Of a DNA stretch of 64,000 nt, positions 5,315 through 53,655 are shown piece after piece. Every line of letters begins with the position of its first letter. Position 1 is the first letter of the stretch. Origin of the DNA: Microgenomates group bacterium (GTDB taxonomy: Bacteria; Patescibacteriota; Microgenomatia; UBA12405). The stretch covers positions 135,494 through 199,493 of the forward strand of contig JBAQNJ010000001.1 of the NCBI GenBank assembly GCA_049303675.1, in the 5' to 3' direction. The position numbers were made by a program, and so were the translations under genes. Under the pieces are notes generated by a model, which did no database searches, was not told the origin of the DNA, and worked only from the letters and a program-made list of their open reading frames with translations.

Positions 5315-5347
5315 ATATATAGTATATTTTTAAACTTTATAAACTTT

Positions 5348-6442
5348 TTAACTTTCAACTTTTAAACTCGAAAGAAATAATACTATTTCTTTTGGTACAT
5401 CGATTCCCGTCGCCTGCATAAATCCCTTAAACTGTGGCCCCTTATTTACTTCCCAAATTACCGGCTTGCTCCTATCAAAATCTCTAAATGCCACATCTAC
5501 CCCTGCCACCGCCAATCCACATACCCTTGCCGCCTTTACCGCCAATTGTTTTATCTCTTCTGGCAAATCGGCTACTTCCACCGCGCCACCAGCACTATAA
5601 TTATTTCTAAACTCACTCTTATTCTGTGACGATCTCTTCATTACTCCCAGTACTTTTTCTCCCAACACCAGCACTCGATAATCCCCATCATTAGGTATAT
5701 ATTCTTGCAACATATATCTTTTTCCTTCTTCCGTCTCCGACTTTCTCAGTTTTCTTACCAACTCTTCCATTTCCTCTAAATTATCCGCTTTATACACTCT
5801 CGTCCCTCTGTCCCCCCCACTACCTTTTACTATCACCGGAAAAATAATCGACTCGCAGTCAATAAATTTTTCGCGCGCAGTCACCTGCCCGTCCGGCAGG
5901 CGGGTCTGAGTGGCGTTCGTACGAAGGCGCGAGCACGAAAAATTTTGTTGACGAGAGTCGTCACTATTTTTCATCGTTTCATACAAATACCACAAGCTTC
6001 CATAAATCGTTTTAGGCACATCTATCCCCGCCTTCTTCAAGGCCAACATTTGATATGCCTTGCAAGCCATACTCGGCTTGCCGTTCAAAATAATCGGATC
6101 AACAATTATCGGTTTTTTCTTTAATTCGTAATTCGTAATTTTTAATTCGTAATTAATTAGATCCACCTCTTCCCAGTGTTTTCCGGTTGTTCTAAAAAAT
6201 AACACATCATAATCATTTATTTGCAGCCATCCCTCATTTTTAATTGTACGGGCGGTCCCTTGTGGCCGCCCTTCTAAATTTCCCCTAATTTTAACTCTCA
6301 GCTCAGTCGTATCAAAACACACCCGATTATATGACACCAAATCCAATCTCACTCCCAACTTTTTGGCCGCCTTTTTAATCAGCACCAAATGCTGACTAAT
6401 CTTCCCTCCAAAAAATAACGCTATTTTTGTTTGATTTTTCAT
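5348..6442 (-). CDS. RimK-family ATP-grasp ligase carrying two in-frame repeat insertions
   Basis: VIVKGSGGDRGTRVYK, EFRNNYSAGGAVE, CGLAVAGVDV...WEVNKGPQFKGF. Insertions encode INYELKITNYELKK (6121-6160) and a 95-nt GC-rich hairpin segment (5870-5965). Confidence 0.7.
   Translation of the reverse strand: MKNQTKIALFFGGKISQHLVLIKKAAKKLGVRLDLVSYNRVCFDTTELRVKIRGNLEGRPQGTARTIKNEGWLQINDYDVLFFRTTGKHWEEVDLINYELKITNYELKKKPIIVDPIILNGKPSMACKAYQMLALKKAGIDVPKTIYGSLWYLYETMKNSDDSRQQNFSCSRLRTNATQTRLPDGQVTAREKFIDCESIIFPVIVKGSGGDRGTRVYKADNLEEMEELVRKLRKSETEEGKRYMLQEYIPNDGDYRVLVLGEKVLGVMKRSSQNKSEFRNNYSAGGAVEVADLPEEIKQLAVKAARVCGLAVAGVDVAFRDFDRSKPVIWEVNKGPQFKGFMQATGIDVPKEIVLFLSSLKVES
5870..5965. repeat. 95-nt GC-rich multi-hairpin insertion inside the second ATP-grasp gene
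   Basis: cgcgcgcagtcaCCTGCCcgtccGGCAGGcgggtctgagtggcgTTCGTACGAAggcgcgagcacg. Strongly GC-skewed relative to flanks. Read in-frame as SRLRTNATQTRLPDGQVTAREKF. Confidence 0.65.
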
Positions 6443-6545
6443 AAAATATTAAAAAATATATCGAAGCCATCTTTTTCTAGCGACTTTGAACGTGGGCGAC
6501 CACATTCACCGGAGCAAGAAAAATGGTGGCGAGAATTATTTTTTA

Positions 6546-7958
6546 TCATATTTTTTTAGCACTAATCAAAAACCCCTCCAAATCTTTACGTCCCAATAAA
6601 AATTTTGTCCTCAATTTATTTCTATCCGCCACATTCACTGCTGTTGTCACCTTCTTCCCATTCAACCAAAATGTTGCCCCCACCACTGGCCTGTCCTTGT
6701 TTTTACCGAGACTCGATCGATAATGTCGATAATACAGTACTCGACTCCCTTCCATCAATCCCAACTTTTCCGCCAAAGTTCGATCAATTGAACTCCTAAA
6801 CGCCCCCGTATCAATTTTTGCCCTCACCTCTACTACCCTATGTTTTCCTAGTTTCAATATTGGACTCTTACTCATGTTTGGCCTAAACCCCTTAGGCACC
6901 TTTACTTTAATTATTTCAATTGGTTGAACTGTTTTAGTCCGCTCTTTTTGTTCTACCTTCTCGAAAAAGCTTTCTCCAAACAAATACTTGGACAATGTCA
7001 CAGCATGGTTAGTACTCCTTACGTCGATATCTTCCACTTTATCCATTCTAGCTTTCAGTCCGGCTTTATTACAAATTTGAATCGACAACCCAGGTCGTGA
7101 ATTTACTTCTAGTACCATTGGTCCCCGTTCTTTATCCAACACTACATCTACTCCCAAAAAGCCTAGGCTGGGTATCGCTTTCTGACTATTCACCGCCGTT
7201 TCCAAAATTTCTCGCCACAGCGGTACTTTTATTCCATTTACTTTTATCCATTTCTTTTTGCCATGATCATATAGTTTTTTTATTTCCTCGCCCTTACCCT
7301 CAATTCCAAAAGTAGTTATTCCTGTGGCCAGATCTACCCCTAGTCCCATCGCTCCCTGCTGCAAATTGGCTTTGCCGCCACTTTTCTCTGTTGGAATTCT
7401 AAACATCGCCATTACTGGCACCCGATTATAAACAATCACCCGAATATCTGGTGTCCCCGATTTGGTAATAGCCAAAAACATTGGATGAATCTTGATCCGC
7501 TCTTCTACCAACACCCCATCTCTCATCCCATGAAGACTATATTTACCCACCAATATATCTCGACAATGATCTTTTATTTCCTCCACCGTTACTGTCTTCC
7601 CATCCATCATCTGCCATTTCAGTTCTTCCGACTCAGTTTTAGTTTTTAAATTTGAAATTTTAAATTTTAAATTTTTTAATTGTCTTCTGACGATTAAAAT
7701 TCCCTCTCCCCCATATCCCGATATTGGCTTGATTACAAAATTTCCTTCCAGTTTTTCCCACTCAAATCTATCAACTCCTTTTTCACTTCTAATTCTTTTA
7801 ATCAATTTGGGCACACTTACCCCTGCCTCATTCAAAATATTCTTGGTTCTGTATTTACTATCAGCAATCGACCGACCCTCCGAACTATTCTTCCTTAGGT
7901 ATACCTTATTTCTCTCATTCTTGGTCAAAAATTGCTTATATTGTTTTAAATTAAACAT
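6546..7958 (-). CDS. ATP-grasp ligase (RimK-like) fused to C-terminal retropepsin-like domain (PF05618/DUF785-like)
   Basis: N-terminal ATP-grasp (VIKPISGYGGEGILIV, QQGAMGLGVDLATG, VLEVNSRPGLS). The C-terminus VVEVRAKIDTGAFRSSIDRTLAEKLGL...ATFWLNGKK resembles the RimK-associated aspartyl-protease-like fold. An AATTTGA-repeat insertion encodes KNLKFKISNLKTK. Confidence 0.65.
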   Translation of the reverse strand: MFNLKQYKQFLTKNERNKVYLRKNSSEGRSIADSKYRTKNILNEAGVSVPKLIKRIRSEKGVDRFEWEKLEGNFVIKPISGYGGEGILIVRRQLKNLKFKISNLKTKTESEELKWQMMDGKTVTVEEIKDHCRDILVGKYSLHGMRDGVLVEERIKIHPMFLAITKSGTPDIRVIVYNRVPVMAMFRIPTEKSGGKANLQQGAMGLGVDLATGITTFGIEGKGEEIKKLYDHGKKKWIKVNGIKVPLWREILETAVNSQKAIPSLGFLGVDVVLDKERGPMVLEVNSRPGLSIQICNKAGLKARMDKVEDIDVRSTNHAVTLSKYLFGESFFEKVEQKERTKTVQPIEIIKVKVPKGFRPNMSKSPILKLGKHRVVEVRAKIDTGAFRSSIDRTLAEKLGLMEGSRVLYYRHYRSSLGKNKDRPVVGATFWLNGKKVTTAVNVADRNKLRTKFLLGRKDLEGFLISAKKI

Positions 7959-7984
7959 TTTCTATACTTAATACCTAATACTTA

Positions 7985-8743
7985 CTACTTAATACCATTT
8001 CTTGTCCTAATCGCCTTTCTAAATCTCTTGATTTCCGACAACCGAATACCCGTATAATTACCCACTCCAAAATTGACAATTAGTCCCAGTAGCAGACACA
8101 ACTCAGGATATTTCAAAATTATTTCTTGAACACTTCCGATACTCATTACTCCTGCCCCCACAATCGCCAATATCAAAGTTCCCATTGTTAGTTTTTTGGC
8201 CTCATTTCGGCTTTTAGCTAGTTGCGTTCTGGCAAATTCTTCGGTCAGCAGAATCATAAATAATATTGGGAAAATCGATATTTTATTCATCTCCAATATT
8301 GGGATAAATGACAATCCCAATACCAACACCAATGTTCCGATTGAGATAAATACCAAATTAATAGCTCTCGATGGCCAAAAATGCAGCTTATATCTTCGCA
8401 ATCCCCAGTTGCATATTATCGACATTAGCAAAATCAAGGCAAACAACAGTAGACCACTCGCAATTCCAGTCGCCAAAAACGCCACTGCCATCATTGATGG
8501 CATAAATATTCCATATCCCGATACCCCCAGCACATAATGAAGTCCAGAAATTAGTGTCGCCAATAATGGTAACAATAATAGTAGTACTATCGTGTTTTCT
8601 GACACCCCTCTTTCAATCGCCATCTGAGACGCCACCTTTATACTGTTAATCCCGTTCCAAGTATCCACTTTACCTGCAGCCAATACCGGGTTCACTCCCA
8701 GCCACATTCCTGCCACTACCATCAGAATCCACATTTTTCTCAT
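7985..8743 (-). CDS. polytopic membrane protein (about 7 TM), function unknown
   Basis: Hydrophobic segments throughout. Lies immediately downstream of the ATP-grasp trio. Confidence 0.5.
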   Translation of the reverse strand: MRKMWILMVVAGMWLGVNPVLAAGKVDTWNGINSIKVASQMAIERGVSENTIVLLLLLPLLATLISGLHYVLGVSGYGIFMPSMMAVAFLATGIASGLLLFALILLMSIICNWGLRRYKLHFWPSRAINLVFISIGTLVLVLGLSFIPILEMNKISIFPILFMILLTEEFARTQLAKSRNEAKKLTMGTLILAIVGAGVMSIGSVQEIILKYPELCLLLGLIVNFGVGNYTGIRLSEIKRFRKAIRTRNGIK

Positions 8744-8842: not shown

Positions 8843-8883
8843 GGTAATTCGTAATTCGTAATTTTTAATTCGTAATTTAATTG
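8843..8883. repeat. AATTCGT heptamer tandem array (family R1), promoter-proximal copy
   Basis: ggtaattcgtaattcgtaatttttaattcgtaatttaattg. Homologous arrays at 250-287, 869-888, 6121-6160, 16736-16772, 20513-20546, 21251-21286, 23193-23227, 27526-27557, 30520-30562, 32097-32136 and 47014-47047. Confidence 0.85.
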
Positions 8884-9221: not shown

Positions 9222-9222
9222 A

Positions 9223-9967: not shown

Positions 9968-9969
9968 TT

Positions 9970-10362: not shown

Positions 10363-10395
10363 TAATTATTTATTTATTGTTATAATTTATTCAAT

Positions 10396-10773: not shown

Positions 10774-10792
10774 GGTATTTTCTTCAAACTCA

Positions 10793-11217: not shown

Positions 11218-12563
11218 TGAAGAAACCTATTTTATTATGTCTTATTCTAGTTTCTAGTTTCCAGTTTCCAGTTTTCAATGCGCCTTTGGCGCACGCCATC
11301 AATCCCATTATTATCACCAATGCCGACAAAGGTGCTCCTCCCGCTACCAATCCCCTTTCCGAGGACTCAAATTATTACCCCAACGACGTTAGTCAAATTT
11401 GCAAAGATACATATACAATATCGCAAACTTTTGACCCCCAGATTAGTGGCACTACCACCGACGCCAACGGCAACACTGTCAACACCTATGTAACCCAAGA
11501 TATCAACAGAATCGAAAGTGCCCCTCCCGCCTTCAACTCTGGCTACTGGACCAATTCCGCTGCTTTCAATCAAGGTGCTTTCTCTGGTTCCAATTTCAAA
11601 GGCAATGCTTCCGATCCACTTTCTCGCAACGATGCCCTACTTTCCTACAATCCCTTTAGCGATATTGGTTCTCTGGGAGCCTCCACTCGGCTTATTCCCG
11701 ATGATATTCGTACTTGTTTGGTCGGTCAGCGCCTTGTTCGTGCCGTCAAATTAGCCAGTGGTAGCGGCGATGGTAGTCCTGTATCCAATCAGCAAGTTGC
11801 TTGGCAAAACGGTAGCAAAATTATTTCCACCGTCGACAGCACTGACCATTCCGATTGGCAAAAAGTCCAGCTCGATGATATTGCCATTACTCTCAAGGGC
11901 AATTCCAAATTATTCTTCGACCCGAGTGATGATTGTTATGCCACCGATCCCACACCCAAATCCGGTCCGCTTGGTAAATTTACTTCACCCACTAGTGATT
12001 CTTATCAAAAAATTAGTGAATCAGATGCCAATAGTTTATACCTAACTATAGGCACAATTGGCAATGGTCCCAGTCGCCGCGACGTCTGTGTTTACAACGA
12101 TGATCATGGCCAGCCAGTTGATCCAGAATGTAAGACCACCAATATGCCCCAAGGTGAATATCTCGCCTCTGCCAGCCCCAATTCCATCATCAATTATGAA
12201 GGTCAAAACATTCCACCAGTTCCAGTCTGTCAAAAATCCGGCACCACTCTGATTCAAGACAAACCCAATGGCCTCCTCTATGCCCTCAAGCAAGCCCTCG
12301 ATAATTTTGGCCAAGTAGTCGACCAGACACTTACTTTTTCTCGGTCAACTACTTACGAATATCATATCGATCCCAATTTACAAAAAAACATGAGTATCGA
12401 CGAAGTCGCCAATAAAAATTTGCTTCCCGACTATATCATCACCGAAAATGGTTTAGATAGTTCTAGCCGAGCTTTTTCTTCCACTGATGGTTATAGTATC
12501 GACCCCGGCAACAATGCCACTCGCCAGATTCTCACCCGTCAACTTTTACCAGAATCTTGGTAG
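11217..12563 (+). CDS. secreted protein, possibly pilus/T4SS surface component
   Basis: Signal peptide MKKPILLCLILVSSFQFPVFNAPLAHA (partly encoded by the GTTTCYA repeat). No TM segments. Position between pilins and VirB6-like gene. Confidence 0.45.
   Translation: MKKPILLCLILVSSFQFPVFNAPLAHAINPIIITNADKGAPPATNPLSEDSNYYPNDVSQICKDTYTISQTFDPQISGTTTDANGNTVNTYVTQDINRIESAPPAFNSGYWTNSAAFNQGAFSGSNFKGNASDPLSRNDALLSYNPFSDIGSLGASTRLIPDDIRTCLVGQRLVRAVKLASGSGDGSPVSNQQVAWQNGSKIISTVDSTDHSDWQKVQLDDIAITLKGNSKLFFDPSDDCYATDPTPKSGPLGKFTSPTSDSYQKISESDANSLYLTIGTIGNGPSRRDVCVYNDDHGQPVDPECKTTNMPQGEYLASASPNSIINYEGQNIPPVPVCQKSGTTLIQDKPNGLLYALKQALDNFGQVVDQTLTFSRSTTYEYHIDPNLQKNMSIDEVANKNLLPDYIITENGLDSSSRAFSSTDGYSIDPGNNATRQILTRQLLPESW
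11241..11279. repeat. GTTTCYA heptamer tandem array (family R5), shared CTTATTCT prefix
   Basis: cttattctagtttctagtttccagtttccagttttc. Related arrays at 12609-12652, 23349-23400, 46291-46329, 46644-46677 and 52541-52574. Confidence 0.8.
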
Positions 12564-12570: not shown

Positions 12571-14085
12571 ATGCTAAAATATTTCAACATGCGCCGTGCA
12601 ATTTTTTGTCTTATTCTGGTTTCCAGTTTCCTGTTTCTAGTTTCTAGTGTTGTTATCGCCCAAGACACTACTTATCAGAAAAAACGTGATGCTATCAAGA
12701 AGGGCAACAATCAAGAACGTTGGCTCAAAGAATCGTTTGATTCCAATGCCGTGGTTGCTCTCGAGGCCTTTACTGGTCCGATTCCTGATGATGTTCTCAA
12801 CGGTACTGCAGTTGGCTATATCCCCAGCGGCATGATTGGCTATGGTGCCAATATGATTGCCCAGCTCTCCGTCCCCGCCGCCTCCGGCGTCCAATATTTG
12901 GCCGATTTAAAGGACACTTTTCTCGGTGGCCATCCCGCCTATGCTCAAACTCCCAACGGTTTTGGCTTTACTGGCCTCCAGCCCATTTTGCCCATCTGGC
13001 GCGGTTTTCGTAACGTAGTTTATCTTCTCTCTTCTCTTATCTTTATCATCATCGGTGTCATGATTATGTTGCGGGTCAAAATTAGTCCTCAGGCGGTAAT
13101 TAATATCCAAAACGCCATTCCCCAGCTCGTCACCACTCTTATTTTAGTCACTTTTTCCTATGCTATCGCCGGATTACTTATCGATGTCATGACCTTTATT
13201 CAGGGACTAGTTATTGCTCTTCTCTTCCAAATCAATGGTACCGCTCTCGGATCCAATCTTTTACCAGGTATCAAAAATTATTCTTTTGATACTCTCACCA
13301 ACACTGGTATTGGTGACTATGCCAATCTGGCTATTCGTGCTCTACCCATGTCTGTCTTTATAGCGTGGGGCACTATCATTGGGGCAATTATTGGCGGATT
13401 TTTCCTCCCCTTTACGGCAGGCGCATCAATAGCTGCTGGTGGTGGAATTGGTGTTGTTATAGTTTTGTTAGTTGTTTCTATTGCAGTTATCGTCTGGATG
13501 TTCAAGTTTTATTTCGGCTGTCTTAAGGCTTATATTACTATCATTTTCAAAATTGTCGTCGCCCCCCTAGAATTAGCTATGGGTGCCTTCCCCAATTCCA
13601 AAATGGGTTTTAGTACTTGGATTTGGGATCTGATTGCCAATCTCGCCATTTTTCCCATCTCCACTATCTTTATGGTCATTGGCAACATGATTATTGATGC
13701 CTCGAAGAAGGGCTTATGGGCTCCCAGTGTTATTGCCAATCTCTCATTACCAGGCTCGCTTACCGCCCTGGGTACCCTAGGCCTCAACAATATTATTTCC
13801 ATTGGTATTGGTTTATCAGTTGTCGCACTTATGTCAAAATTACCCGAAATGATTCCCGAGTTTGTCTTTGCCATCAAGCCATCCCCATGGGGCAAGGCTA
13901 TCGGTGAGGGACTCACTTCCAAGGCTGCCCAAAATGCTTGGGGTCTTGGTAAGGCTACGGGTCAACAATGGGTACATGACAAATTATTAGACCAAGAAGG
14001 ACTGAGTCCAACAGGTGATCGGCTTGCTACACTTGGACGTGGTATGGAGGTTTTTGGCATAGCCAAAGAAAAGAGACATCCTTAA
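12571..14085 (+). CDS. VirB6/TrbL-like polytopic T4SS membrane protein
   Basis: Signal peptide followed by about 8 hydrophobic helices. Start chosen at ATG 12571 (MLKYFNMRRAIF...), since the track ORF starting at 12487 would overlap the upstream gene. Confidence 0.5.
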   Translation: MLKYFNMRRAIFCLILVSSFLFLVSSVVIAQDTTYQKKRDAIKKGNNQERWLKESFDSNAVVALEAFTGPIPDDVLNGTAVGYIPSGMIGYGANMIAQLSVPAASGVQYLADLKDTFLGGHPAYAQTPNGFGFTGLQPILPIWRGFRNVVYLLSSLIFIIIGVMIMLRVKISPQAVINIQNAIPQLVTTLILVTFSYAIAGLLIDVMTFIQGLVIALLFQINGTALGSNLLPGIKNYSFDTLTNTGIGDYANLAIRALPMSVFIAWGTIIGAIIGGFFLPFTAGASIAAGGGIGVVIVLLVVSIAVIVWMFKFYFGCLKAYITIIFKIVVAPLELAMGAFPNSKMGFSTWIWDLIANLAIFPISTIFMVIGNMIIDASKKGLWAPSVIANLSLPGSLTALGTLGLNNIISIGIGLSVVALMSKLPEMIPEFVFAIKPSPWGKAIGEGLTSKAAQNAWGLGKATGQQWVHDKLLDQEGLSPTGDRLATLGRGMEVFGIAKEKRHP

Positions 14086-16560: not shown

Positions 16561-16772
16561 ATTATCACAGTTTCTATCCCAAAATGCAAGCCTCAGTTTA
16601 TCCTATAACTAATTCCACCCATTTTAGTAATTTACTATTTCTATTATTTTATATCCTTGTTTCTGTTAAATTTTTAAATTCTATTAAATTTTATCTTTTA
16701 TCCCTCATTCCTGTATAATCCATTCACCGACAACCATTCGTAATTCATAATTTTTAATTCGTAATTATTTTT

Positions 16773-20902: not shown

Positions 20903-21253
20903 CTACATCAATTCCATCAATTTTTCTCTATCATCACCCTTCCCTTCCCTGACCCTAAACTTATGCCTACACTTGGTACACTCGTATTTAATTTGAAATT
21001 CGAAATTTGAAATTCGAAATTCTGTCCCCACCGGTTCCATCATCCCCTGACAATCACTCTCTCTATCTCCGGGAATTATTCTATCCACGTGTTTAGCCCA
21101 CAAACATTTTGGGCAATGATCCGTATATCCATCCCCAATTACCTCATTTCCACAATTCCCACATATAAAATTTTCTATCTTTCTTAAAAAATTCCTCCTC
21201 CCCTCTTTCGTCAAAGAGGGGTTTGGGGGTGATTTTGTTCTAAAACTTTTCAT
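20903..21253 (-). CDS. RNHCP-domain zinc-ribbon protein
   Basis: CGNCGN...YTDHCPKCLWAKHVD matches the RNHCP signature. The N-terminus is encoded by a GC-rich hairpin element, and the body carries an AATTTGA repeat (ISNFEFQIKYE). Confidence 0.55.
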   Translation of the reverse strand: MKSFRTKSPPNPSLTKEGRRNFLRKIENFICGNCGNEVIGDGYTDHCPKCLWAKHVDRIIPGDRESDCQGMMEPVGTEFRISNFEFQIKYECTKCRHKFRVREGKGDDREKLMELM

Positions 21254-21280: not shown

Positions 21281-24265
21281 TTATTTTGCTATCTCCACCC
21301 CCATCTTAATATCCTTCTCCAACTTTTGATTAAACAGCAGTTTATTGCCATTTAGTGTCGCTGCTGGTTCCACCTGATTCACCTGCCAATCAGTTGGCAC
21401 TGTTACCATACTCACGATTCCAGTATCTCCATACCCTGGCTGTCTTTGAATATAATTTAAATAAGAAAAGTTATCTTTATTGGTAATATCAACCGAATCA
21501 ACATATCGTAGCTCCACCGTTTTCTTCTTAGTCGGTGGCACTTCTATCAAGAACCCCACTTCTTTCTTCCCGTTTTTTATAGCTACGTCTAAGCTATCCC
21601 CCGAATAGATCGTTTTTACCCCATTTATTTCGTTACTAGTGACACTTACTTCCGCCAAATTAGCACTCTCTGGAATATAGACTCTAACATAATTCTTATA
21701 GCTTCCCCCCGGCCAGCTGTCATTTTTAGAGGTGTTTTCGTAGTTAATTTTTATTACTCGGCCAATTGTTTGTGTCCCTATATCTATTTGTTGATCAATA
21801 CTTCGGTAAAGAAAATAGTTCGCCTTGTTCACCCCCAAATTTGCTTCAACTATGTACAAGTAGTCTGCAAAACACCTATCCACTGCACATTTTCCCTCAT
21901 ATATCGCCCCATCCCATCCTAGTCCTGAGATTATCTTGGCCGCACCCGAGTTGTTAAATGACATTTGCACATCATTACTCTCCAACAAATCAATTAGCGC
22001 CAACACCATCCTCGCCCTCTCCTCCCCCTTTAGATTTTTTAATTCCTCAAACAACTGCCTTCCCAGTCCTCCCAAAAAACTCGCTTTTTGATTTGAGCCA
22101 GGGAAAAACTTGGTCTCCGCATAAAACTCAGCCTGTTCATAGATATTATTCTTATTTATTTTCTCCTTAAAGTCCGGCACATAAATCTCTCCGGTCACTC
22201 CCAAAATAGATCTGGCTACCGCCAAATCCACCCCAATTACTCCATCGACTTTTCGTCCAGTTTCCTTTTCCAAGAACCATTGTAAATCTCTGGCCGATTC
22301 TCCAAAATTCGCCTGCCAATTTGCATCCCTCATAAACCAATTAGCCTCACCTAAATATTTTTTTATTGCCACTGGCGGTTCTACATGACCTTTCAATTGC
22401 CCATCCGCCTCATAGATATCTCTAATCTCAAAGTTTAGTAATCTGCCGTTTTCAAAGCTGAGAATACCATAAGACCCTATGAATCCTCCATTTGGTCTTA
22501 GTTCACTTTCGTTTTGCAGTAGCACTAGATACTCCCTCCTCTTTCCGTCCGTTCCTATCATTTCTGGCATAAATTCCACTGTCTTAGTCATCTTTACCAC
22601 CACTTTATTTAACTCCTCTACCCTTGATCTTAGGTCACTATAATTTCCCCTCCATCTGGCTGGTATCCACGACCAGTCCCCCGCCAATCTCGCGCTCAAC
22701 ATTGCCAGTTCTGCCTCAATCTCCTCGCCATTTGCCTTTAGTTTTACCCACTCTTCGTCCCAGTTAACTGCTTTTTCTACAAAAATTGCCTCAGAAATAG
22801 TATCGGCTCTCTTCGCCAGACTCACCCCGCTAATTTCCAGCTTCAATCCCTGCTCTGCCACTTTCAATACTTCTTGGTAATGCCGGCCCCACTCAAATCT
22901 ATTCCACTGCCATGATTCCACCCTTCTCTGGTTCCTCAACACGGTTTTCATTGTCTTGTTGGCCAGCGTCACTGCCTCATCATATTTTCTGGCTTCAATC
23001 ATATTTCCCACACTTAGGACACTTTTGACTATTTTATAATTACCATATCCCAATCCCCAGATTATTGCCAACAATATCCCCAGCCCCACCGCCGCCCCAA
23101 TTCCCATCCACTTTCCTGATATATTTAATTTGTAGCTAAATCTAGGTTTTGTTTTTATTTCTCTTTCAGTATTTTTTTTTATTTCTTTTGGTATTTCGTA
23201 ATTCGTAATTTTAAATTCGTAATTATCTTTAATTCTCGCCATCCTACTATTCGAATTTTTGACCAGTATCGGCTTTATTTCAAAATCCTCTTCTCTCAAA
23301 GTTATTTTTTCTTCTACAGTCGATTTCTCCTCAGCTATTGGTTCCATTCCCGTTTCTAGTTTCACGTTTCTAGTTTCCTGTATTACGCTTCCCGTTTCCT
23401 CTTCCTCCTCCACCTCCACCTCAAATCTTCTTTTGTTTACCTTCTCCTCCTCAACTATCTTTTTAGGAATTAGGATTTCGATTTTAGGATTTTTTCTGTT
23501 CCGACTCTCTTCATCAGCCATTGCAAACAGGCTCTGCAACGCCCCAAACAGCGAGTTTTTCAAATCCAGCTCCGGCATCCATCTCAATCGACTCCACTCC
23601 TCCAGCACCTCTTTTTCCATGGGCATTGATGGTTGCTCCATCGTTTCTTGTACCTTTGTTCTTGTCATCTTTGCCTCCTCAATCAGCCAAGTAGCCAGAC
23701 TCATTGAATCAGTTTTGTCCCCCCAGATATCATATATGTTTCCCCTAGTTCCCGCCAAAAACGTTGCCTTCATAACCACCTCCACCAGAGATTCCTCACC
23801 CATCAATCTCAATACAGCCTTTCTTGGTGGCAAGTTCAGGTTCATATTTCTTACCGCCAGTTTCATTGCCCTAATCAGATATCCCACCTCGCCATTTTCC
23901 TCAGTGAAGCTCATTGCTCCTCCGACTACTCCATGGGCCCTGACAATTCGCCAATTATTGCTTCCCCCCAATTCATCTCCATTAACATCCGGCTCACCAT
24001 TTATCCTAATTATTGCCAATCGTATCTCTGGCCCCAATTTTTTCCATAGACCAATCTCATTTTTAAAATCAAATACATAGTCAATCTCTCCCAAGTCACT
24101 CGGGATATCGCTTCGCACAATTATTCTCGACTTACTAGCCAAACTGGCATCATAATCACCTACCGCAATTACCCTCATGTCGCTCTCACTTAGTTTTCTT
24201 ACCAAGCTAGCTCCACCCAATTTTTCCACCCCATTTACCAAAGCTATCGGCATCCCCTCTTTCAT
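21281..24265 (-). CDS. DUF4012-domain membrane protein (994 aa)
   Basis: LRPNGGFIGSYGI hallmark of DUF4012 and a central TM (GIGAAVGLGILLAIIWGLG). In-frame NYEF/NYEI and LETGN repeat insertions. Confidence 0.65.
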   Translation of the reverse strand: MKEGMPIALVNGVEKLGGASLVRKLSESDMRVIAVGDYDASLASKSRIIVRSDIPSDLGEIDYVFDFKNEIGLWKKLGPEIRLAIIRINGEPDVNGDELGGSNNWRIVRAHGVVGGAMSFTEENGEVGYLIRAMKLAVRNMNLNLPPRKAVLRLMGEESLVEVVMKATFLAGTRGNIYDIWGDKTDSMSLATWLIEEAKMTRTKVQETMEQPSMPMEKEVLEEWSRLRWMPELDLKNSLFGALQSLFAMADEESRNRKNPKIEILIPKKIVEEEKVNKRRFEVEVEEEEETGSVIQETRNVKLETGMEPIAEEKSTVEEKITLREEDFEIKPILVKNSNSRMARIKDNYEFKITNYEIPKEIKKNTEREIKTKPRFSYKLNISGKWMGIGAAVGLGILLAIIWGLGYGNYKIVKSVLSVGNMIEARKYDEAVTLANKTMKTVLRNQRRVESWQWNRFEWGRHYQEVLKVAEQGLKLEISGVSLAKRADTISEAIFVEKAVNWDEEWVKLKANGEEIEAELAMLSARLAGDWSWIPARWRGNYSDLRSRVEELNKVVVKMTKTVEFMPEMIGTDGKRREYLVLLQNESELRPNGGFIGSYGILSFENGRLLNFEIRDIYEADGQLKGHVEPPVAIKKYLGEANWFMRDANWQANFGESARDLQWFLEKETGRKVDGVIGVDLAVARSILGVTGEIYVPDFKEKINKNNIYEQAEFYAETKFFPGSNQKASFLGGLGRQLFEELKNLKGEERARMVLALIDLLESNDVQMSFNNSGAAKIISGLGWDGAIYEGKCAVDRCFADYLYIVEANLGVNKANYFLYRSIDQQIDIGTQTIGRVIKINYENTSKNDSWPGGSYKNYVRVYIPESANLAEVSVTSNEINGVKTIYSGDSLDVAIKNGKKEVGFLIEVPPTKKKTVELRYVDSVDITNKDNFSYLNYIQRQPGYGDTGIVSMVTVPTDWQVNQVEPAATLNGNKLLFNQKLEKDIKMGVEIAK

Positions 24266-32266: not shown

Positions 32267-32278
32267 TAAACTTTTCAC

Positions 32279-33798: not shown

Positions 33799-34155
33799 TC
33801 ACTGTTCACTGATAACTATTTTATGTACCCCTATCGCCTCACCAAATGAGTTAATCCACTTAGTAACTTCATTTGACGCTTCAGTCTCCGTCGCTCCATT
33901 TAAGATCATTTTTAGAGTCTTTGGTGCAGTGTATTTTTCCACCACAAATCCTTTACCATAATAAGGTAATTCTTTTTCCAGCGGATAATCATTATTTGGA
34001 ATCACAGTTGGAGTTATTTTTCTTTCTTTCTGTTCACTGTTAACTGTTAACTGTTCACTATCTTTATTTCCATATCTTATTTTAACTACTGCCATTATCA
34101 GAATTACCAATATCAAAATTACTATTACTTGATATTTTTCCATTTTCTTAATCAC
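33799..34155 (-). CDS. membrane-anchored hypothetical protein (T4SS-operon distal gene)
   Basis: N-terminal TM. Carries an in-frame TGTTMAC repeat insertion (SEQLTVNSEQKE). Confidence 0.4.
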   Translation of the reverse strand: MIKKMEKYQVIVILILVILIMAVVKIRYGNKDSEQLTVNSEQKERKITPTVIPNNDYPLEKELPYYGKGFVVEKYTAPKTLKMILNGATETEASNEVTKWINSFGEAIGVHKIVISEQ

Positions 34156-40959: not shown

Positions 40960-40987
40960 TTTGTTATTTACTGTTAACTGTTCACTG

Positions 40988-41704
40988 TTAACTGTTAACT
41001 GGCTTTGTACTCACCATTGGTGAATCATAATTTAATGAAGATAGTTTTTGGTTGGCCGCCGTGTCTTCGTTATAGATTTTATAAAATAGCTCAATTAACT
41101 CTCTCGTTGTCAGATCTCTTATTTCCAATCCGAGTCGGGAAAACAATCTACTTAAATGATTTTTCTTGGGCTCGAGGGCTGCCTTAGCTTTTTCCAAAAT
41201 ATATTTTTTATCAAAGGGGAGTTCTTTGGATTCTTTTTTAGTGAAATTTGGTATTCCCGAAAACATTTGGGTGGACATACTTTTTATTCCCAGCTCCAAT
41301 ATTGAAAATGGGATAACAATATAAAATGCCTTCGACAAGACGTCGTTTTTCTTTACCGTCTCCTCGATGAACTTTCGATAAGAGGCTATTCTTTCCTTCA
41401 ACAATAGATTGGTTTGTTTTTCTTGAGCGTTTTTTAAATTATTCAAATAAAAAGTTACATCCTTGGTGTTGGAATAAACCACTATTTGTATAGGAAAATT
41501 TAGTGAATTGAGTATTCCCCCATATGAAAAAATCAAGGCTCCCTGTTCTCTTTCTGATAGTAAGTCAAAGTTAACTGAGGATATCTGTAAGATACTCACA
41601 CAAGAACCGTCTTTTAGCAGCACCATTCCATCTACTATGTCTTCAATTGGTAGATGTTCCTGAGTACTGCCTCTTATTGCAATTTTTAATGGGTCAACTG
41701 CCAT
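40988..41704 (-). CDS. T4SS-operon hypothetical protein (238 aa)
   Basis: Lies between the PrgI-like and VirB4 genes. Its C-terminus and stop codon are encoded by a TGTTMAC repeat. Confidence 0.4.
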   Translation of the reverse strand: MAVDPLKIAIRGSTQEHLPIEDIVDGMVLLKDGSCVSILQISSVNFDLLSEREQGALIFSYGGILNSLNFPIQIVVYSNTKDVTFYLNNLKNAQEKQTNLLLKERIASYRKFIEETVKKNDVLSKAFYIVIPFSILELGIKSMSTQMFSGIPNFTKKESKELPFDKKYILEKAKAALEPKKNHLSRLFSRLGLEIRDLTTRELIELFYKIYNEDTAANQKLSSLNYDSPMVSTKPVNS

Positions 41705-42685: not shown

Positions 42686-42738
42686 TACTAAAATTCTATC
42701 CTAATATTCATACTTTATAAACTTTTAACTTTACAAAC

Positions 42739-43692
42739 TTGATAAACTATCACATGTCTCATCTAGTCATCATCGATGGTCACGCTATTGCCCATCGTGC
42801 CTACCACTCTATCCCCCCGCTCTCTGTCAATGGTCAGCCGGTCAATGCCCTCTATGGTTTTTATTCCATGATTCTCAGTGCTCTTGACACTCTCCATCCC
42901 GACTACCTCATTGTTTGTCTTGATTCCGCTGGTCCCAATTTCCGCAATGATGAGTTTGTCGGTTATCGAGCCCAGCGTAAACCAGCGGATTTAGATCTCA
43001 AAACACAGTTACCTCTTCTACCCCAAACTCTTGACTCCGCTGGCATTACCAATTTTGCCATGGGTGGTTTTGAGGCCGATGACCTAATTGGTACCATCGC
43101 GGTTCGATCTCTACGCAAAATTAGAAATAAAGAAAAGTTTATATCTAGAGTTACCATCATCACCGGGGACAAAGACCTCATGCAACTCGTCAACGACAAA
43201 GTTAGTCTTTTTGTCCCAGTCCAAGGATTGTCAGTTACCAAATTGTATGGACCAGACGAAGTCAAAGAAAAGTTAGGTGTCAATCCGTCTCAGGTTGTCG
43301 ATCTCAAAGCCCTAATGGGGGATAGTTCCGACAATTACCCAGGGGTCGAGGGTATCGGCCCTGTCGCCGCCATCAATCTCTTATCCAGCTACCAACATTT
43401 AGATAATATCTATTCAAATTTAGATAAAATAAAACCTACAATTTCTCAAAGACTACTCAAAGATCGCGATAACGCCTATTTATCCCAAAAACTAGCCACT
43501 ATTGTCACCAACATCCCCCTCAAATTCAAGCTATCCACTTCTCGCCTCCGCCGTTCTACCTACTTATCACTTGAAAAATTATTTATAGAGTACAATTTCA
43601 AGTCCTTACTCACTCGTCTCCACTCCAAAAACCCAGACGTTTTCAAAAAAGCAGAGGTCAAGGTAAAATCTACCCAAGCATCTCTATTTTAA
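42739..43692 (+). CDS. 5'-3' exonuclease (stand-alone Pol I N-terminal/FEN-like domain)
   Basis: LVIIDGHAIAHRAYHS, GFEADDLIGT and the H3TH region (DNYPGVEGIGPVAA). Confidence 0.85.
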   Translation: MINYHMSHLVIIDGHAIAHRAYHSIPPLSVNGQPVNALYGFYSMILSALDTLHPDYLIVCLDSAGPNFRNDEFVGYRAQRKPADLDLKTQLPLLPQTLDSAGITNFAMGGFEADDLIGTIAVRSLRKIRNKEKFISRVTIITGDKDLMQLVNDKVSLFVPVQGLSVTKLYGPDEVKEKLGVNPSQVVDLKALMGDSSDNYPGVEGIGPVAAINLLSSYQHLDNIYSNLDKIKPTISQRLLKDRDNAYLSQKLATIVTNIPLKFKLSTSRLRRSTYLSLEKLFIEYNFKSLLTRLHSKNPDVFKKAEVKVKSTQASLF

Positions 43693-45798: not shown

Positions 45799-46293
45799 CT
45801 ATTTTGTACATTTTGTCAATATCTTTAAGAACTCATTTCTGTTCAGATTAATCAATCTCCCATCTCTGCCTACTTCAGTTTCGGTAATCTCTACTCCCGC
45901 CCATTCTGGAGGTACAAATTTTATGGAGTCTTCTTCATATTCAAACTCAAACTCAGCTCGAATCAGACCATCGTAGTCTCCACCATAAACTTTTATTGAT
46001 ATTTCCGGATATCGTTGCAATACATACGATTTTCTCACCAAACTCCTAATTGACTTAGCTTTTAATCTTTCAAATTCAATCTTTGTAATCTCTTTGATAG
46101 TTTTATTTGCTGCAAACAGCTCACTGCCTGACTTTTCTTCATAAATACATTTGCCACTTATTTTAGTTATTCTTTTCTCAATTTCACCCAGCTCCAAAAA
46201 ATATCTCTCTTGGTTTTCGACTTTTACACCAGTTAAGTCAGGCATCACTTTTACCAAATACTTCCTCTCAATTTCTTTTAAATTATGTTTCAT
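45799..46293 (-). CDS. CYTH-domain protein (triphosphatase / class IV adenylate cyclase-like)
   Basis: N-terminal EIERKYLV signature of CYTH. Confidence 0.7.
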   Translation of the reverse strand: MKHNLKEIERKYLVKVMPDLTGVKVENQERYFLELGEIEKRITKISGKCIYEEKSGSELFAANKTIKEITKIEFERLKAKSIRSLVRKSYVLQRYPEISIKVYGGDYDGLIRAEFEFEYEEDSIKFVPPEWAGVEITETEVGRDGRLINLNRNEFLKILTKCTK

Positions 46294-46322
46294 TCTAGTT
46301 TCTAGAATCCAGTTTCAAGTTT

Positions 46323-47303
46323 CTATTTTTCCCCTATCCACCTCTCGGCATCAATTCCAGCTCTACAGCCATCACCAGCGGCCGCAATCGCCTGTCGGTA
46401 GATATCATCGACATTATCTCCCGCGGCAAAAATTCCCTCAACTGATGTCATTGTCCGATATTTTTCATTTTTCCCCACTACTACATGTCCACTTTCTTTT
46501 AACTCCACCACATCTTTTACAAATCCCGTCGCCGGATCATGCCCCACCGCCACAAACAATCCATCCACCGCCATTATTTTCTCCTCCCCAGTCTTGTTAT
46601 TTTTTATCTTAATATTTTCCAGTTTCTCGCCTGTGCCCATTTGGGTATTTCTAGTTTCCAGTTTCGAATTTATTTCCACCACTTCCGAGTCCCACACTAT
46701 TTCCATCTTCGGATTCCCTTTTATTTTATTAGCCGTATCTTCTAGCATTCTAAATTTATCTCGCCGATGAATCACGTACACTTTTGTGGCAAATTTAGCC
46801 AAAAACAGTGCATCTTCTCCGGCCACATCTCCTCCACCCACTACGGCTACTATTTTATCTCGGAAAAACATCCCATCGCAGGTCGCACACGCCGACACTC
46901 CCTTACCGATTAGCTCTTTTTCGTTTGGTAATCCCAGCCACCTCGCCTTTGCTCCCGTGGCAATTATTACTGCCTTTGTTTTGAGCGTTTCCCCACTATC
47001 TAGTTCTACTTCAATAATTCGTAATTCGTAATTTTTAATTCGTAATTGTTTTACTATCCCATTTCTTATCTCTACCCCCAAATTCCTCACCTGTGCCTGC
47101 ATGTCCATCATTAGTTTAATTCCCCCTATTCCATTGGCAAATCCGGGGTAGTTGTCGACTACTGTGGTCAATGTCAGTTGACCCCCAGGCTGGTCCCCGC
47201 CCAGTACAATTGTTTTCAGATTAGCCCGTATGTTGTATATTGCCGCCGTCAACCCCGCAGGTCCCGACCCGATAATCACTGTGTCATAAACATTTTCATT
47301 CAT
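46323..47303 (-). CDS. trxB: thioredoxin reductase
   Basis: GSGPAGLTAAIY FAD site, redox CATCDG and NADPH GGGDVAGEDA. Carries in-frame insertions IKNYELRII and SKLETRNTQ. Confidence 0.9.
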   Translation of the reverse strand: MNENVYDTVIIGSGPAGLTAAIYNIRANLKTIVLGGDQPGGQLTLTTVVDNYPGFANGIGGIKLMMDMQAQVRNLGVEIRNGIVKQLRIKNYELRIIEVELDSGETLKTKAVIIATGAKARWLGLPNEKELIGKGVSACATCDGMFFRDKIVAVVGGGDVAGEDALFLAKFATKVYVIHRRDKFRMLEDTANKIKGNPKMEIVWDSEVVEINSKLETRNTQMGTGEKLENIKIKNNKTGEEKIMAVDGLFVAVGHDPATGFVKDVVELKESGHVVVGKNEKYRTMTSVEGIFAAGDNVDDIYRQAIAAAGDGCRAGIDAERWIGEK

Positions 47304-47354
47304 ATCTCTATTTTACTTTATAACTTTCTACTTTATAACTTGATAAACTTATTT

Positions 47355-48555: not shown

Positions 48556-48635
48556 TTTTCTATACTGCCACTCTTCTGCCGTAGCCTAATATATCACAGC
48601 CTCAACTTTGACGATTTAGTATAATAAGTGTTGTC

Positions 48636-48693
48636 TGATAACTGTTCACTGTTCACTGTTCACTGTTAACTGTTAACTGTTAACTAACTAATG
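48636..48693. repeat. TGTTMAC heptamer tandem array (family R4) upstream of mutM
   Basis: ctgataactgttcactgttcactgttcactgttaactgttaactgttaactaactaATG. Related arrays at 33781-33820, 34030-34062 and 40967-41003. Confidence 0.8.
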
Positions 48694-52278: not shown

Positions 52279-52284
52279 TCAAAG

Positions 52285-52300
52285 TACTACACTCGTAGTA
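52285..52300. promoter_or_regulatory. CopY-type operator TACTAC-ACTC-GTAGTA abutting or overlapping the start codon at 52300
   Basis: Identical 16-mer to the site upstream of copA. Confidence 0.6.
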
Positions 52301-53655
52301 TGCTAAGCAAAGCGAAGTCCCGCAACGGCGGGATCATTAAGTCAATCACTTATGCCGTCTCCGGCACCCACTGCCACGCTTGCGAAATCTTAATCGAAAA
52401 AGAAATTCGGGACATGCATGGTATCAAATCAGTCGAGGCCTCAACCGCCGATTCTACTGTCAAAATCTCTGGCACCCACATTCCCGAAATATCCTTACTA
52501 AATAATATTTTCAAGGACTCTGGTTATATATTTTCAAAAAATCCAGTTTCCAGTTTCCAGTTACCAGTTACTTCTAACTCTCCCGACATCTTCACCTCCC
52601 TTCTTATTGTCTCTGGCATCTTGATTATCTTTTTCATCCTCAACAAAATGGGATTATTGTCCGCTTTTACCGTCAATTCTAGTTCCTATTATCCAGCATT
52701 TTTTATGTTTGGGCTTATTGCTGGCCTATCTACTTGTGCTGCCCTAATTGGCGGTATTGTCGTCGCCATTTCCCAGCGTGGATTCTCCTCAGTTCTTTCT
52801 TTTCTCACCGGTCGAGTAATTTTATTTGGAGTTTTTGGTGCCATTCTCGGCTACTTTGGCAGTTTTTTTAGACTATCCCTGACTGCAGGAGCCATTGTCA
52901 GCGCAATTGTATCTCTGGTTATGTTTATTGTGGGCATGCAAATGCTCAATATCGCTTGGTTCAAGCGTTTTTCTTTTGCTTTACCCAAAAATATTACCGG
53001 CCCCTTAGCCGATGACTCCACCTTTATTGGACGTTACTTGCCTTTTATTTTTGGGGGACTTACTTTTTTCCTCCCCTGTGGCTTTACCCTTACTGCCCAA
53101 ACACTCGCCCTAGCCTCAGGTGACATCATCAGTGGTGGATTAATTATGTTGTCCTTTGCTCTGGGTAGTTTTATACCCCTCTTGCTCATTGGCTACGGCA
53201 GTTCTTCATCACAGAAAAATCCTCGCACTGCCGCCTATTTTTCCCAAGTTGCTGGTATCCTCGTTGTCTTGTTTGCCATGTACAATTTGTATTCCCAATC
53301 CATTGTTCTCGGCATAAATCCAGTTTTCAAATCATCTGAGATCCGAGATCTGACATCTGATATCCAAATTATTAATGGCACTCAAATCCTGAAGATGACC
53401 GCCAGTGCCTCAGGTTATACTCCCAATAGTTTTACCATCAAGGCAGGACAGAAAACCCGCTGGGAAATTACTGACAAGGGGACTAGCGGCTGTACCAACG
53501 CTGTCATCTCAAAAGGCTTGTTGGGCAACGATATTATCAATCTCGTCGCTGGTACCACCTCAGTCAAGGAATTCACCGCCCCCACTGCCGCCGGCACCTA
53601 TCGCTTTTCCTGTTGGATGGGTATGATTAGTGGCACTATTGAAGTAGTTCAATAG
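52300..53655 (+). CDS. HMA-domain / DsbD_2 (CcdA-like) transmembrane / C-terminal cupredoxin-like metal-handling membrane protein
   Basis: N-terminal HMA (SGTHCHAC). TM region with paired Cys motifs (LSTCAAL, FLPCGF) as in the CcdA/DsbD_2 family. C-terminal beta domain ...GTYRFSCWMGMISGTIEVVQ. Confidence 0.6.
   Translation: MLSKAKSRNGGIIKSITYAVSGTHCHACEILIEKEIRDMHGIKSVEASTADSTVKISGTHIPEISLLNNIFKDSGYIFSKNPVSSFQLPVTSNSPDIFTSLLIVSGILIIFFILNKMGLLSAFTVNSSSYYPAFFMFGLIAGLSTCAALIGGIVVAISQRGFSSVLSFLTGRVILFGVFGAILGYFGSFFRLSLTAGAIVSAIVSLVMFIVGMQMLNIAWFKRFSFALPKNITGPLADDSTFIGRYLPFIFGGLTFFLPCGFTLTAQTLALASGDIISGGLIMLSFALGSFIPLLLIGYGSSSSQKNPRTAAYFSQVAGILVVLFAMYNLYSQSIVLGINPVFKSSEIRDLTSDIQIINGTQILKMTASASGYTPNSFTIKAGQKTRWEITDKGTSGCTNAVISKGLLGNDIINLVAGTTSVKEFTAPTAAGTYRFSCWMGMISGTIEVVQ

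Follow-up and report, generated by a model that had tools for sequence, protein, structure and literature searches.

Heptameric simple-sequence repeats (SSRs) are over-represented in many bacterial genomes, including the GGGAATC repeats of Xanthomonas and the GGGGAYT repeats of Nostoc PCC 7120, and their function is unknown (PMC4692102). Heptamers of the short tandemly repeated repetitive (STRR) type are also reported from Calothrix PCC 7601 (Mazel et al., as cited in PMC4692102). Here we analysed 64,000 nucleotides of DNA from a Microgenomates group bacterium (GenBank assembly GCA_049303675.1, contig JBAQNJ010000001.1, positions 135,494 to 199,493 of the forward strand; hereafter the window), which carry dozens of short AT-rich heptamer arrays in genes as well as in spacers. 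Together with the 9 kb to its left, the window provides 73 kb of a genome of ~1 Mb, and this is the DNA of the array-bearing genome that was examined. The arrays are STRR-type heptamers in an unusually dense, one-stranded form. We propose, at a probability of about one half, that a lineage-specific process tied to one DNA strand maintains and homogenises them, and that what they do to promoters, peptides and stop codons is a by-product.

The window arrays and the heptamers of Xanthomonas, Nostoc and Calothrix (PMC4692102) are all dispersed tandem 7-nt units, with heptamers alone over-represented and a mode of about four units. The Xanthomonas and Nostoc repeats occupy hundreds of loci per genome and often lie ≤50 bp from the start of an open reading frame (ORF) or over a stop codon, as they do here. 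However, those repeats are G-rich and G-quadruplex-forming, ~90% intergenic, equally distributed over both strands and often arranged as convergent pairs, whereas the window arrays are AT-rich, comprise at least ten families, lie in ORFs in more than half of the cases, are 100% one-stranded in every multi-copy family and reside in a ~1 Mb host of the candidate phyla radiation (CPR). We assign the arrays to the STRR type because they consist of head-to-tail 7-nt units, show a heptamer-specific excess, occupy many loci per unit and are ~4 units in size. Intergenic predominance, which is absent here (~17 of 39 arrays), is a descriptive trait of the species studied rather than a strict criterion. 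The window arrays also do not share the lack of strand preference or the convergent pairs, and this is the main difference from the described cases.

Long SSRs with units of 5-11 nt were reportedly found by Mrazek and colleagues, in 2007, mainly in large genomes. In 2008, Elhai and colleagues are said to have described small dispersed repeats (SDRs) of 21-27 nt in Nostoc punctiforme, which lie in coding and non-coding DNA and for which mobility without an enzyme of their own was proposed; the SDRs in question reportedly have hairpin potential and clear insertion footprints. The window arrays are likewise very short dispersed families in coding and non-coding DNA, but they lack hairpins and footprints and are internally periodic. 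The tandem repeats of Borgs reportedly evolve fast and create disordered protein regions, their in-gene units being multiples of 3 nt and variable in length. Both systems are pervasive in spacers and coding regions and add low-complexity peptides at permissive positions; however, the window unit is 7 nt long and read in three frames, and its array size is fixed at ~32 nt. The 7-bp tandem units in promoter regions of Haemophilus hmw1A (SSRs) and ctxAB (TTTTGAT heptads) affect transcription there through their copy number or occupancy, but these are single loci with variable copy number and known regulators, whereas the window has dozens of loci with a fixed low copy number. Finally, repetitive extragenic palindromic (REP) sequences and REPINs are also short, highly repeated, genome-specific families evolving within a genome, but REPINs are palindromic, extragenic and RAYT-mobilised, whereas the window arrays are non-palindromic direct repeats and often intragenic (PMC3116915). 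Our literature search found no paper on heptamer or simple-sequence repeats in Patescibacteria.

Period, size and strand of the arrays

Tandem Repeats Finder (TRF) reports 39 period-7 arrays, with unit matches of 72-100% and at least ten unit families, all of them in the first 54 kb, where their density is 0.72 per kb. Under strict settings, 13 period-7 arrays were observed against 0 in 20 order-3 Markov simulations, while periods 4-6 and 8-12 gave 0-1 strict arrays each. As single words, the heptamers are only mildly more frequent than in shuffles (45 vs 33.5, 28 vs 17, 38 vs 22 and 8 vs 2.2), and the significance lies in their tandem arrangement. The median array is 32 nt, or ~4.6 units, and 26 of the 39 are 26-37 nt long; arrays of two to three units are very few, though within TRF detection. 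Because this length distribution is sharply peaked rather than geometric, simple birth and death by slippage does not fit. A hidden population of many decayed arrays was considered and rejected, as the lag-7 autocorrelation is gone once the detected arrays are masked. The most frequent family is TAATTCG (10-11 loci), followed by AGTTTCY (6) and CTGTTMA (4), and a related 8/9-nt family, AACTTTATR, stands beside the heptamers. Twenty-two arrays are intragenic and ~17 are intergenic or overlap gene ends; per kb, short intergenic spacers are enriched ~10-fold. The preliminary description of this DNA had recognised four micro-repeat families and quoted ten peptides encoded by them. All ten peptides lie where it placed them and TRF arrays underlie each family, but the four are a subset of ~40 arrays and at least ten unit families.

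In view of the source, a metagenome-assembled genome (MAG), low-complexity reads might have been misassembled into arrays. We consider this practically negligible. The NCBI MAG GCA_049287145.1 and two independent Logan assemblies are 100% identical to the window over 7.1 kb and 3.3 kb, six arrays included, so that three assemblies agree base for base. Furthermore, the ORFs are intact and open through the arrays, and arrays occur at orthologous sites in MAGs from unrelated studies.

All multi-copy families have their unit on the plus strand of the window (TAATTCG 10:0, AGTTTCY 6:0, CTGTTMA 4:0, ATACTTA 4:0, AATTTGA 3:0, plus to minus). The direction of the surrounding gene makes no difference to this, and no inverted pairs occur in the window. 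The same polarity is seen in the 9 kb to the left, and it is mirrored in related loci that were fetched in the opposite orientation (L155-157, L159; L numbers denote loci and contigs of our comparison set). Background oligomer skew was rejected as the cause, since single copies of the same heptamers outside arrays are not polar (25:16, 31:32, 25:36 and 69:159) and are unbiased or even reversed. The window has a GC content of ~40%, and its plus strand is strongly C-/T-rich throughout, with a GC skew of -0.11 to -0.42. Since the third-codon skew is -0.50 in plus-strand and minus-strand genes alike, this extreme strand asymmetry is independent of transcription. The arrays are therefore polar along the one axis, the C/T-rich strand, that defines the two strands of this genome.

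DnaN of the window is 81-82% identical to that of two Candidatus Shapirobacteria MAGs (L004, L005) and 57-69% identical to that of further Shapirobacteria/Woesebacteria MAGs, with conserved gene order; the host is a Shapirobacteria-like bacterium of the CPR/Patescibacteria with a genome of ~1 Mb. No sign change of the skew is seen at rpmH-rnpA-yidD/dnaA-dnaN in any Shapirobacteria-like locus, only a step of ~+0.13 (window 1-64000 plus L004-L016 and L022, ±10 kb around dnaN), while the skew flips normally in more distant Woesebacteria (L017-L019). Whole-chromosome G/C strand disparity has been described in related Microgenomates, for which unidirectional replication was proposed (Kadnikov et al. 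2020, PMC7143001). The window likewise has one C-rich strand over the whole region and no flip at dnaA, although that study described composition alone and did not mention repeats. The disparity is matched here and extended to Shapirobacteria.

Outside this lineage, >120 metagenome contigs (L032-L151) match (TAATTMG)3, with GC contents of 0.29-0.67 and clearly from many unrelated taxa. Their TAATTCG/TAATTAG arrays have ~4.6 units and usually lie beside other heptamer arrays of like size, so that both the unit TAATTCG and the ~4.6-copy size are taxonomically widespread. L070 and L094 even carry the TAATTCG-TAATTTT-TAATTCG composite of the window. Several of these contigs have arrays in both orientations, some as inverted pairs; in all six whose |GC skew| exceeds 0.2, it is the C-rich strand that carries the unit, which lends weak support to the polarity.

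The 54-64 kb segment contains no heptamer arrays, where ~7 would be expected at 0.72 per kb (Poisson probability ~7e-4), and its skew is much weaker, at -0.12. The segment, with genes for a CopA-type P-type ATPase, a methyltransferase, an AAA_21/Abi-like ATPase and an MFS transporter, is probably a recently acquired island. An array-free island of weak skew fits the expectation if arrays and skew accumulate with residence time.

The arrays and related repeats to which the following sections refer are listed below with the strand that carries the unit.

256, 20513, 21250, 23192, 27527, 30521 and 32099, plus: further members of the TAATTCG family
5328..5368, plus: TTTTAAAC/AACTTTATA repeat, last codons and stop (SLKVES-stop) of the ATP-grasp gene 5348-6442, upstream of the minus-strand gene 4406-5314
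6122..6154, plus: exact copy 1 of the 33-nt TAATTCG module, within the minus-strand ATP-grasp gene 5348-6442, read NYELKITNYEL
7964..7995, plus: ATACTTA x4.6, family also at 9259, 9995 (TACTTAC) and 29232
8845..8877, plus: exact copy 2 of the 33-nt TAATTCG module, in a spacer, 17 nt before the first T4SS-pilin-like gene (8895)
10847: TTTTACT x6.4, encoding the hydrophobic N-terminal segment of a T4SS-pilin-like protein
11245..11274, plus: TTCTAGT/TTCCAGT x4.3, signal-peptide hydrophobic core of ORF 11217-12563 (ILVSSFQFPVF)
12619..12648, plus: GTTTCCA/GTTTCTA x4.3, signal-peptide core of the ORF starting at 12589 (CLILVSSFLFLVSS)
16734..16766, plus: TAATTCG module (3 mismatches), in a spacer, 6 nt before ORF 16773
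20990..21022, plus: AATTTGA/AATTCGA alternating, period 14, in the RNHCP-domain gene 20903-21253 (minus), read EFRISNFEFQI
23347..23377, plus: GTTTCTA-type, in the DUF4012 gene 21281-24265 (minus), read ETRNVKLET
26759..26790, plus: AATTTGA x4.6, perfect, in the Wzy-like gene 26292-27572 (minus), read LISNFKFQISNY
26898..26931, plus: AAATTTG x4.9, perfect, second Wzy loop, read KNFKFQISNFKF
27188..27221, plus: AACTTTAT(G/A), imperfect, period 16, in the Wzy-like gene, read YKFIKLKVHKVEKY
32218..32274, plus: AACTTTATR nonamer x6.3, directly upstream of dnaN (ATG 32279) and downstream of DnaA boxes 31934 and 31955
34030..34059, plus: CTGTTCA/CTGTTAA x4.3, in ORF 33799-34155 (minus), read SEQLTVNSEQ
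40970..41001, plus: ACTGTTA x4.6, spacer plus last 4 codons and stop of ORF 40988-41704 (PVNS-stop)
42712..42748, plus: ACTTTATAA x4.3, divergent spacer between ORF 41771-42685 (minus) and the 5'-3' exonuclease gene (plus, ATG 42753)
46293..46329, plus: TTCTAGT x5.3, spacer, overlapping the start of ORF 45799-46293 and the stop of trxB
46641..46667, plus: decayed AGTTTCY, in trxB, read SKLETRNTQ
47015..47047, plus: exact copy 3 of the 33-nt TAATTCG module, in trxB in another frame, read LRIKNYELRII
47315..47346, plus: ACTTTATA x4.1, divergent spacer between trxB (minus) and the 47355 ORF (plus)
48635..48685, plus: CTGTTCA x3 + CTGTTAA x3 (7.3 units), occupying the 50 bp that immediately precede the mutM ATG (48691)
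52542..52569, plus: TCCAGTT x4.0, in the DsbD/HMA/cupredoxin gene 52300-53655 (plus), read NPVSSFQLPV

Between the two AATTTGA arrays of the Wzy-like gene lies a C-rich CCACCAC-type tract (26851-26890, read WWWVVVWMGVVG), which is unrelated to the AT-rich heptamer families.

Orthologous slots and the identical 33-nt module

Heptamer arrays are common in syntenic Shapirobacteria/Woesebacteria loci (L005, L007, L013, L022, L011, L008, L009), very often at the positions they occupy in the window but with different units. Between conserved flanks, the dnaA-dnaN slot holds TAATTCG in the window, TTTAGAG in L007, AACTATT in L005 and CCAATTA in L013, and it is non-repetitive and only 9 nt shorter in L004. 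The Wzy loop of the 26759 array holds ATTTGAA in the window, ATTAGTA in L007 and ATTAGAA in L013, in the same register and with single-step differences, and L007 and L013 have a common G variant in the same unit. The Wzy slot of the 26898 array contains TTGAAGA in L007, and that of the 27188 repeat contains AACTTGATAAACTTTA x2.2 in L013 and TTGAAGT in L007. Likewise, the slot of the 34030 array holds TTTTGAC x4.4 in L005, the spacer of the 40970 array holds TGGATTT in L005, ATCTAAG in L013 and a clean gap in L004, the trxB slot of the 47015 module holds the unrelated unit ACATCTG in L022, and the spacer of the 47315 array has an AATTACG array in L157 instead. Because orthologous positions hold different units, we prefer turnover in place or copying between arrays over fresh insertion.

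The proteins show where such inserts are tolerated. Across 120 TrxB orthologs (60-77% identity), inserts occur only at the termini and in two internal surface loops, which hold varied array-type peptides (ITNYEL, KFKIQNSKFK, SKSENLNSKLEN and others). In TrxB of the window, one loop is the TAATTCG module and the other is the AGTTTCY array at 46641-46667, which adds 11 aa compared with solved thioredoxin reductases, at a place prone to inserts in the 120 orthologs; its peptide SKLETRNTQ is present as previously quoted, although the array is decayed and not clean.

Arrays are not uniformly present in all orthologs, and their presence differs even between sister species. No heptamer array occurs in 34 kb of the L004 genome, while its sister L005, at ~80% nucleotide identity and with the same skew, has 16 in 34 kb; at TrxB site 1 of L004 the insert length is kept and the periodicity is gone. 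L004 has abundant other repeats (16430-16529 and 17000-17065; L158 367-1112), namely TGTTGG x11, a 24-mer x4.2 and 12-, 18- and 36-mers, which encode T/P/N-rich tracts. The repeat units of this array-free genome are multiples of 3 nt and include no heptamers, a spectrum opposite to that of the window genome.

Within the window genome, the 33-mer TAATTCGTAATTCGTAATTTTTAATTCGTAATT is identical at 6122, 8845 and 47015, that is, in two reading frames and one spacer with unrelated flanks, and it includes an internal TAATTTT variant unit. Three more TAATTCG loci differ from it by 2-3 mismatches, and 0 such copies are expected by chance. The slot of the trxB copy is common to L155 and L156 (TrxB 64-69% identical), whose related arrays differ in unit detail; even so, over 33 nt the window array matches two further loci of the same genome at 100% identity. 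The sequences thus support within-genome homogenisation of arrays. Across loci and species, modules recur that consist of five units, the middle one being a variant (U U V U u).

In the explanation that we favour, the slots would be old permissive positions, namely protein loops, signal-peptide cores, gene termini and spacers. As one particular strand is replicated, their content would be continually rewritten, through slipped-strand events inside an array as well as through the copying of one array into another (ectopic conversion or template switching), and units would thereby be homogenised into genome-specific families. The process would be lineage-specific and losable, and arrays would then decay to unique sequence of similar length.

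Alternatively, the arrays could be true mobile mini-modules of ~33 nt that a trans-acting enzyme (transposase- or primase-polymerase-like) copies on single-stranded DNA, which would account for the polarity. Strict strand polarity is typical of elements that move via lagging-strand single-stranded DNA, such as IS200/IS605. The three identical copies at unlinked loci, the peaked rather than geometric array length and the all-or-none presence between sister species also speak for mobility, and 33 nt equal 11 codons, the exact size of the decayed trxB insertion, while the 26898 array is a 10-aa insertion relative to the Wzy-like protein of L004 and L005. However, there are no terminal inverted repeats or hairpins at the arrays. 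Folded as single-stranded DNA, six modules have energies between -0.7 and -4.2 kcal/mol. Shuffled sequences fold as well as five of these modules (z-scores between -0.2 and -2.1), while the sixth (z of -6.9) has only -0.7 kcal/mol, and a hairpin or cruciform hypothesis was rejected on these grounds. No target-site duplications were found at the arrays, and array ends are ragged. Different units in the same slots of several species do not fit random insertion unless permissive sites are saturated. Comparison of filled with empty sites gave some clean gaps in L004 and the 11-aa TrxB insertion; elsewhere, as in the dnaA-dnaN slot that is only 9 nt shorter in L004, the array replaces sequence of similar length, which indicates replacement and not insertion. 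No candidate enzyme was identified within the window. We therefore regard mobile modules as unlikely, though deserving some weight. The preliminary description had spoken of proliferating mini-modules: one family is indeed discrete, with the 33-mer at three loci, but proliferation by transposition-like mobility is unproven, and the fuzzy ends and the reuse of orthologous positions with different units count against classical mobility.

Arrays in reading frames and before start codons

Near-identical micro-repeats occur both in start-proximal spacers and in frame within genes, where they form signal-peptide cores, loop peptides and C-termini with stops, as the preliminary description had noted. 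As 7 is no multiple of 3, successive units fall into all three frames, and the peptide encoded by an array has a 7-residue period. In plus-strand genes, the T-rich reading gives hydrophobic cores of signal peptides or transmembrane segments, while in minus-strand genes the A-rich reading gives loop peptides of K/N/I/F/Q/E/Y (NYELKITNYEL, LRIKNYELRII, NFKFQISNFKF). TAATTCG arrays are confined to minus-strand genes or spacers, because units with TAA, TAG or TGA cannot be read through in sense, and TTCTAGT arrays in plus-strand genes become TTCCAGT exactly at in-frame TAG positions. ORFs that enter an array gain C-terminal residues and a stop (PVNS-stop, SLKVES-stop). The arrays do supply stops, as had been proposed under the name of stop-codon donors, but this is a trivial consequence of a 7-nt unit read in three frames.

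In five secreted or pilin-like proteins encoded within 8895-14085, an array forms the core of the N-terminal hydrophobic segment. The cluster at 8895-11217 comprises six small paralogous genes, 4 of 6 with matches to PF18895 (T4SS_pilin), and the arrays differ from gene to gene: the small genes 9223, 9970 and 10816 and the larger ORFs 11217 and 12589 have ATACTTA, TACTTAC, TTTTACT, TTCYAGT and GTTTCYA, respectively. An 11-nt left flank, TGTCTTATTCT, is common to the arrays at 12619 and 11245. Of the three sites at which a conserved prefix CTTATTCTRGTTTC had been reported, it is exact at 11241 and 12610, in the signal peptides of adjacent but otherwise unrelated ORFs, while at 46291 only ATTCTAGTTTC matches. 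Paralogy as the reason for the common CTTATTCT flank was rejected, as the two proteins are unrelated beyond the signal peptide; local copying of a signal-peptide segment is a possible source.

Since gain or loss of a 7-nt unit, not divisible by 3, shifts the frame, the arrays might switch surface proteins by phase variation. They do lie in T4SS-pilin-like, Wzy-like, DUF4012 and other envelope-protein genes, and a heptanucleotide case is reported in Haemophilus (PMC8262952, PMC2651432). However, the arrays have only 4-5 units and are often interrupted, all ORFs are intact, the sequences are identical in independent, near-clonal consensus assemblies from different runs, and housekeeping loci (trxB, ATP-grasp, the dnaA-dnaN spacer) are equally affected. 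Phase variation is thus highly improbable.

Copies stand directly 5' of the starts of dnaN (ATG 32279), mutM (48691), the 5'-3' exonuclease gene (42753) and the 47355 ORF, as first observed. However, any intergenic array is near a start because the spacers are so short, and the positions of start-proximal arrays range from abutting the ATG to 60 nt upstream. At many genes, a TAnAAT-type -10 box lies 5-8 nt before the start codon and no Shine-Dalgarno sequence is evident (for example at 8895, 10396, 18514-20487, 25003-26229, 34155-35084, 46323-47303, 49849 and 55657-56271), a pattern that suggests leaderless mRNAs as the rule in this organism.

The suggestion that the arrays generally serve as promoter or UP-like modules, providing AT-rich upstream elements or -35/-10 hexamers to such apparently leaderless genes, has some basis. 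With TAnAAT 5-8 nt before the ATG, the 50 bp upstream are promoter space, and five spacers with promoters, two of which are divergent, hold AACTTTATR arrays. TGTTAAC read on the opposite strand includes TTAACA (5/6 to TTGACA), the 42712 array supplies a TTTATA -35-like hexamer to the predicted promoter of the minus-strand gene 41771-42685, and the sequence before dnaN is conserved. However, array orientation follows the DNA strand and not the downstream gene, so that one unit stands upstream of plus and minus genes in opposite relative orientation, and also downstream of genes. Moreover, 22 of the 39 arrays are intragenic, orthologous spacers hold unrelated units, and a consensus promoter/terminator scan did not discriminate, its promoter count being barely above background (68 vs 50.8 ± 6.7 in shuffles). 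A general promoter role is therefore very improbable.

The dnaA-dnaN spacer (31922-32278) is an oriC/incC-like region conserved in five species. DnaA boxes, TTATCCAC, stand at 31934 and 31955, with degenerate copies besides. Also conserved are a block TTATCCCCCGAA..TTACCC and the sequence CTCGTTTTATAAGACAAAAC, after which come the variable heptamer slot and then the AACTTTATR tract abutting dnaN. Because the sequence of this tract is conserved in L005 and L007 (partly in L004) and adjoins conserved DnaA boxes, a role as promoter or in origin unwinding is plausible there. Otherwise the AACTTTATR family behaves like the rest: it occurs inside the Wzy gene (same slot in L013) and in the 23S rRNA gene, and it is replaced in L157. 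The 23S rRNA gene (L154 14202-17403, ~3-7 kb left of window position 1) is 3202 nt long against a model of 2925 nt, an insertion of ~280 nt, and contains a nonamer array, (ACTTTATGA)x4.3 + (AAAGTTTTT)x3 in window orientation; the array was placed within the gene as a whole. The 5S gene is followed by a CTGTTAA array.

The dnaN tract also bears on the idea that the arrays are functional heptads, that is, tracks for a protein polymerising every 7 bp or polar signals for replication or segregation. Ribbon-helix-helix repressors such as omega of pSM19035 bind heptad arrays. In favour of such a function are the five-unit architecture with its variant middle unit, conserved across loci and species, the strict orientation, the same unit at many loci, and the AACTTTATR tract before dnaN, which lies beside DnaA boxes and is conserved in three to four species; the ctx promoter heptads are reported protein-binding sites (bioRxiv 10.1101/2021.05.14.444153). 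However, at least ten unit families in one genome demand many binding specificities, orthologous slots hold differing units, arrays are wholly absent from a sister species whose genes and skew are the same, and more than half of the arrays lie inside coding regions of unrelated genes. We consider functional heptads improbable.

The 13-nt palindromic box CTACAYTYGTAGT (TACAnnTGTA) occurs at 52287-52299, 56310-56322, 60293-60305 and 60920-60933, with 5 matches vs 0.05 expected. It lies directly 5' of the ATG of the HMA/DsbD/cupredoxin gene, the CopA-like ATPase gene (in a divergent spacer) and a small ORF, and it resembles the 'cop box'. It is probably the operator of a CopY/BlaI-type metal regulator.

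Origin and significance of the arrays

Several observations weigh against the explanation that we favour, in which STRR-type arrays are kept and homogenised in place by a process coupled to one strand. Nothing accounts for the restriction to period 7 or for the peak of lengths at ~32 nt, plain slippage also leaves unexplained why one unit occupies 10 loci, and the copying step between arrays is one that we infer. No copy-number differences between assemblies were seen, the comparison covering the source MAG and two or three near-clonal Logan consensus assemblies, all 100% identical. The polarity was observed within 73 kb of a ~1 Mb genome. The shared interruption of the middle unit may have arisen convergently, either because CpG decays on a strand poor in G or because interruptions that stabilise an array are selected for, and it recurs with different variants in other genomes. 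Conservation of the module architecture across species could, on the other hand, mean function instead.

If arrays do turn over in place as proposed, promoter-like hexamers, AT-rich tracts, peptide inserts and stops would be by-products filtered by selection and would serve no dedicated function, with the AACTTTATR tract before dnaN as a possible exception. As a bolder and quite doubtful extension, a dedicated activity tied to one replication strand may exist in some Microgenomates; it would write or rewrite ~33-nt modules of five heptads, the middle one variant, at permissive sites throughout a possibly unidirectionally replicating chromosome, and sister lineages may have lost it. Such a writing activity could be a polymerase, a primase, a recombinase or a single-stranded-DNA transposase.

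For the proteins of CPR bacteria, the low-complexity inserts with a 7-residue period (in TrxB, Wzy and pilins) will confuse alignments, domain calls and structure predictions, and the arrays fill promoter regions of apparently leaderless genes. Heptamer repeats have been known in cyanobacteria since 1990 and are over-represented in many bacteria, but their origin and function are not understood. This CPR lineage offers an unusually clean case: a genome of ~1 Mb with one strand compositionally distinct throughout, all multi-copy array families on that strand, array-rich and array-free sister species, and dozens of orthologous slots in which turnover can be followed. Comparative genomics can address whether array genesis is coupled to the replication of one strand and whether a gene co-occurs with the arrays. 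If the dedicated writing activity exists, surface-protein loops, signal peptides, gene termini and promoters would be under constant remodelling, and the activity would provide a mechanistic handle on the origin of the heptameric STRR repeats, unexplained since 1990.

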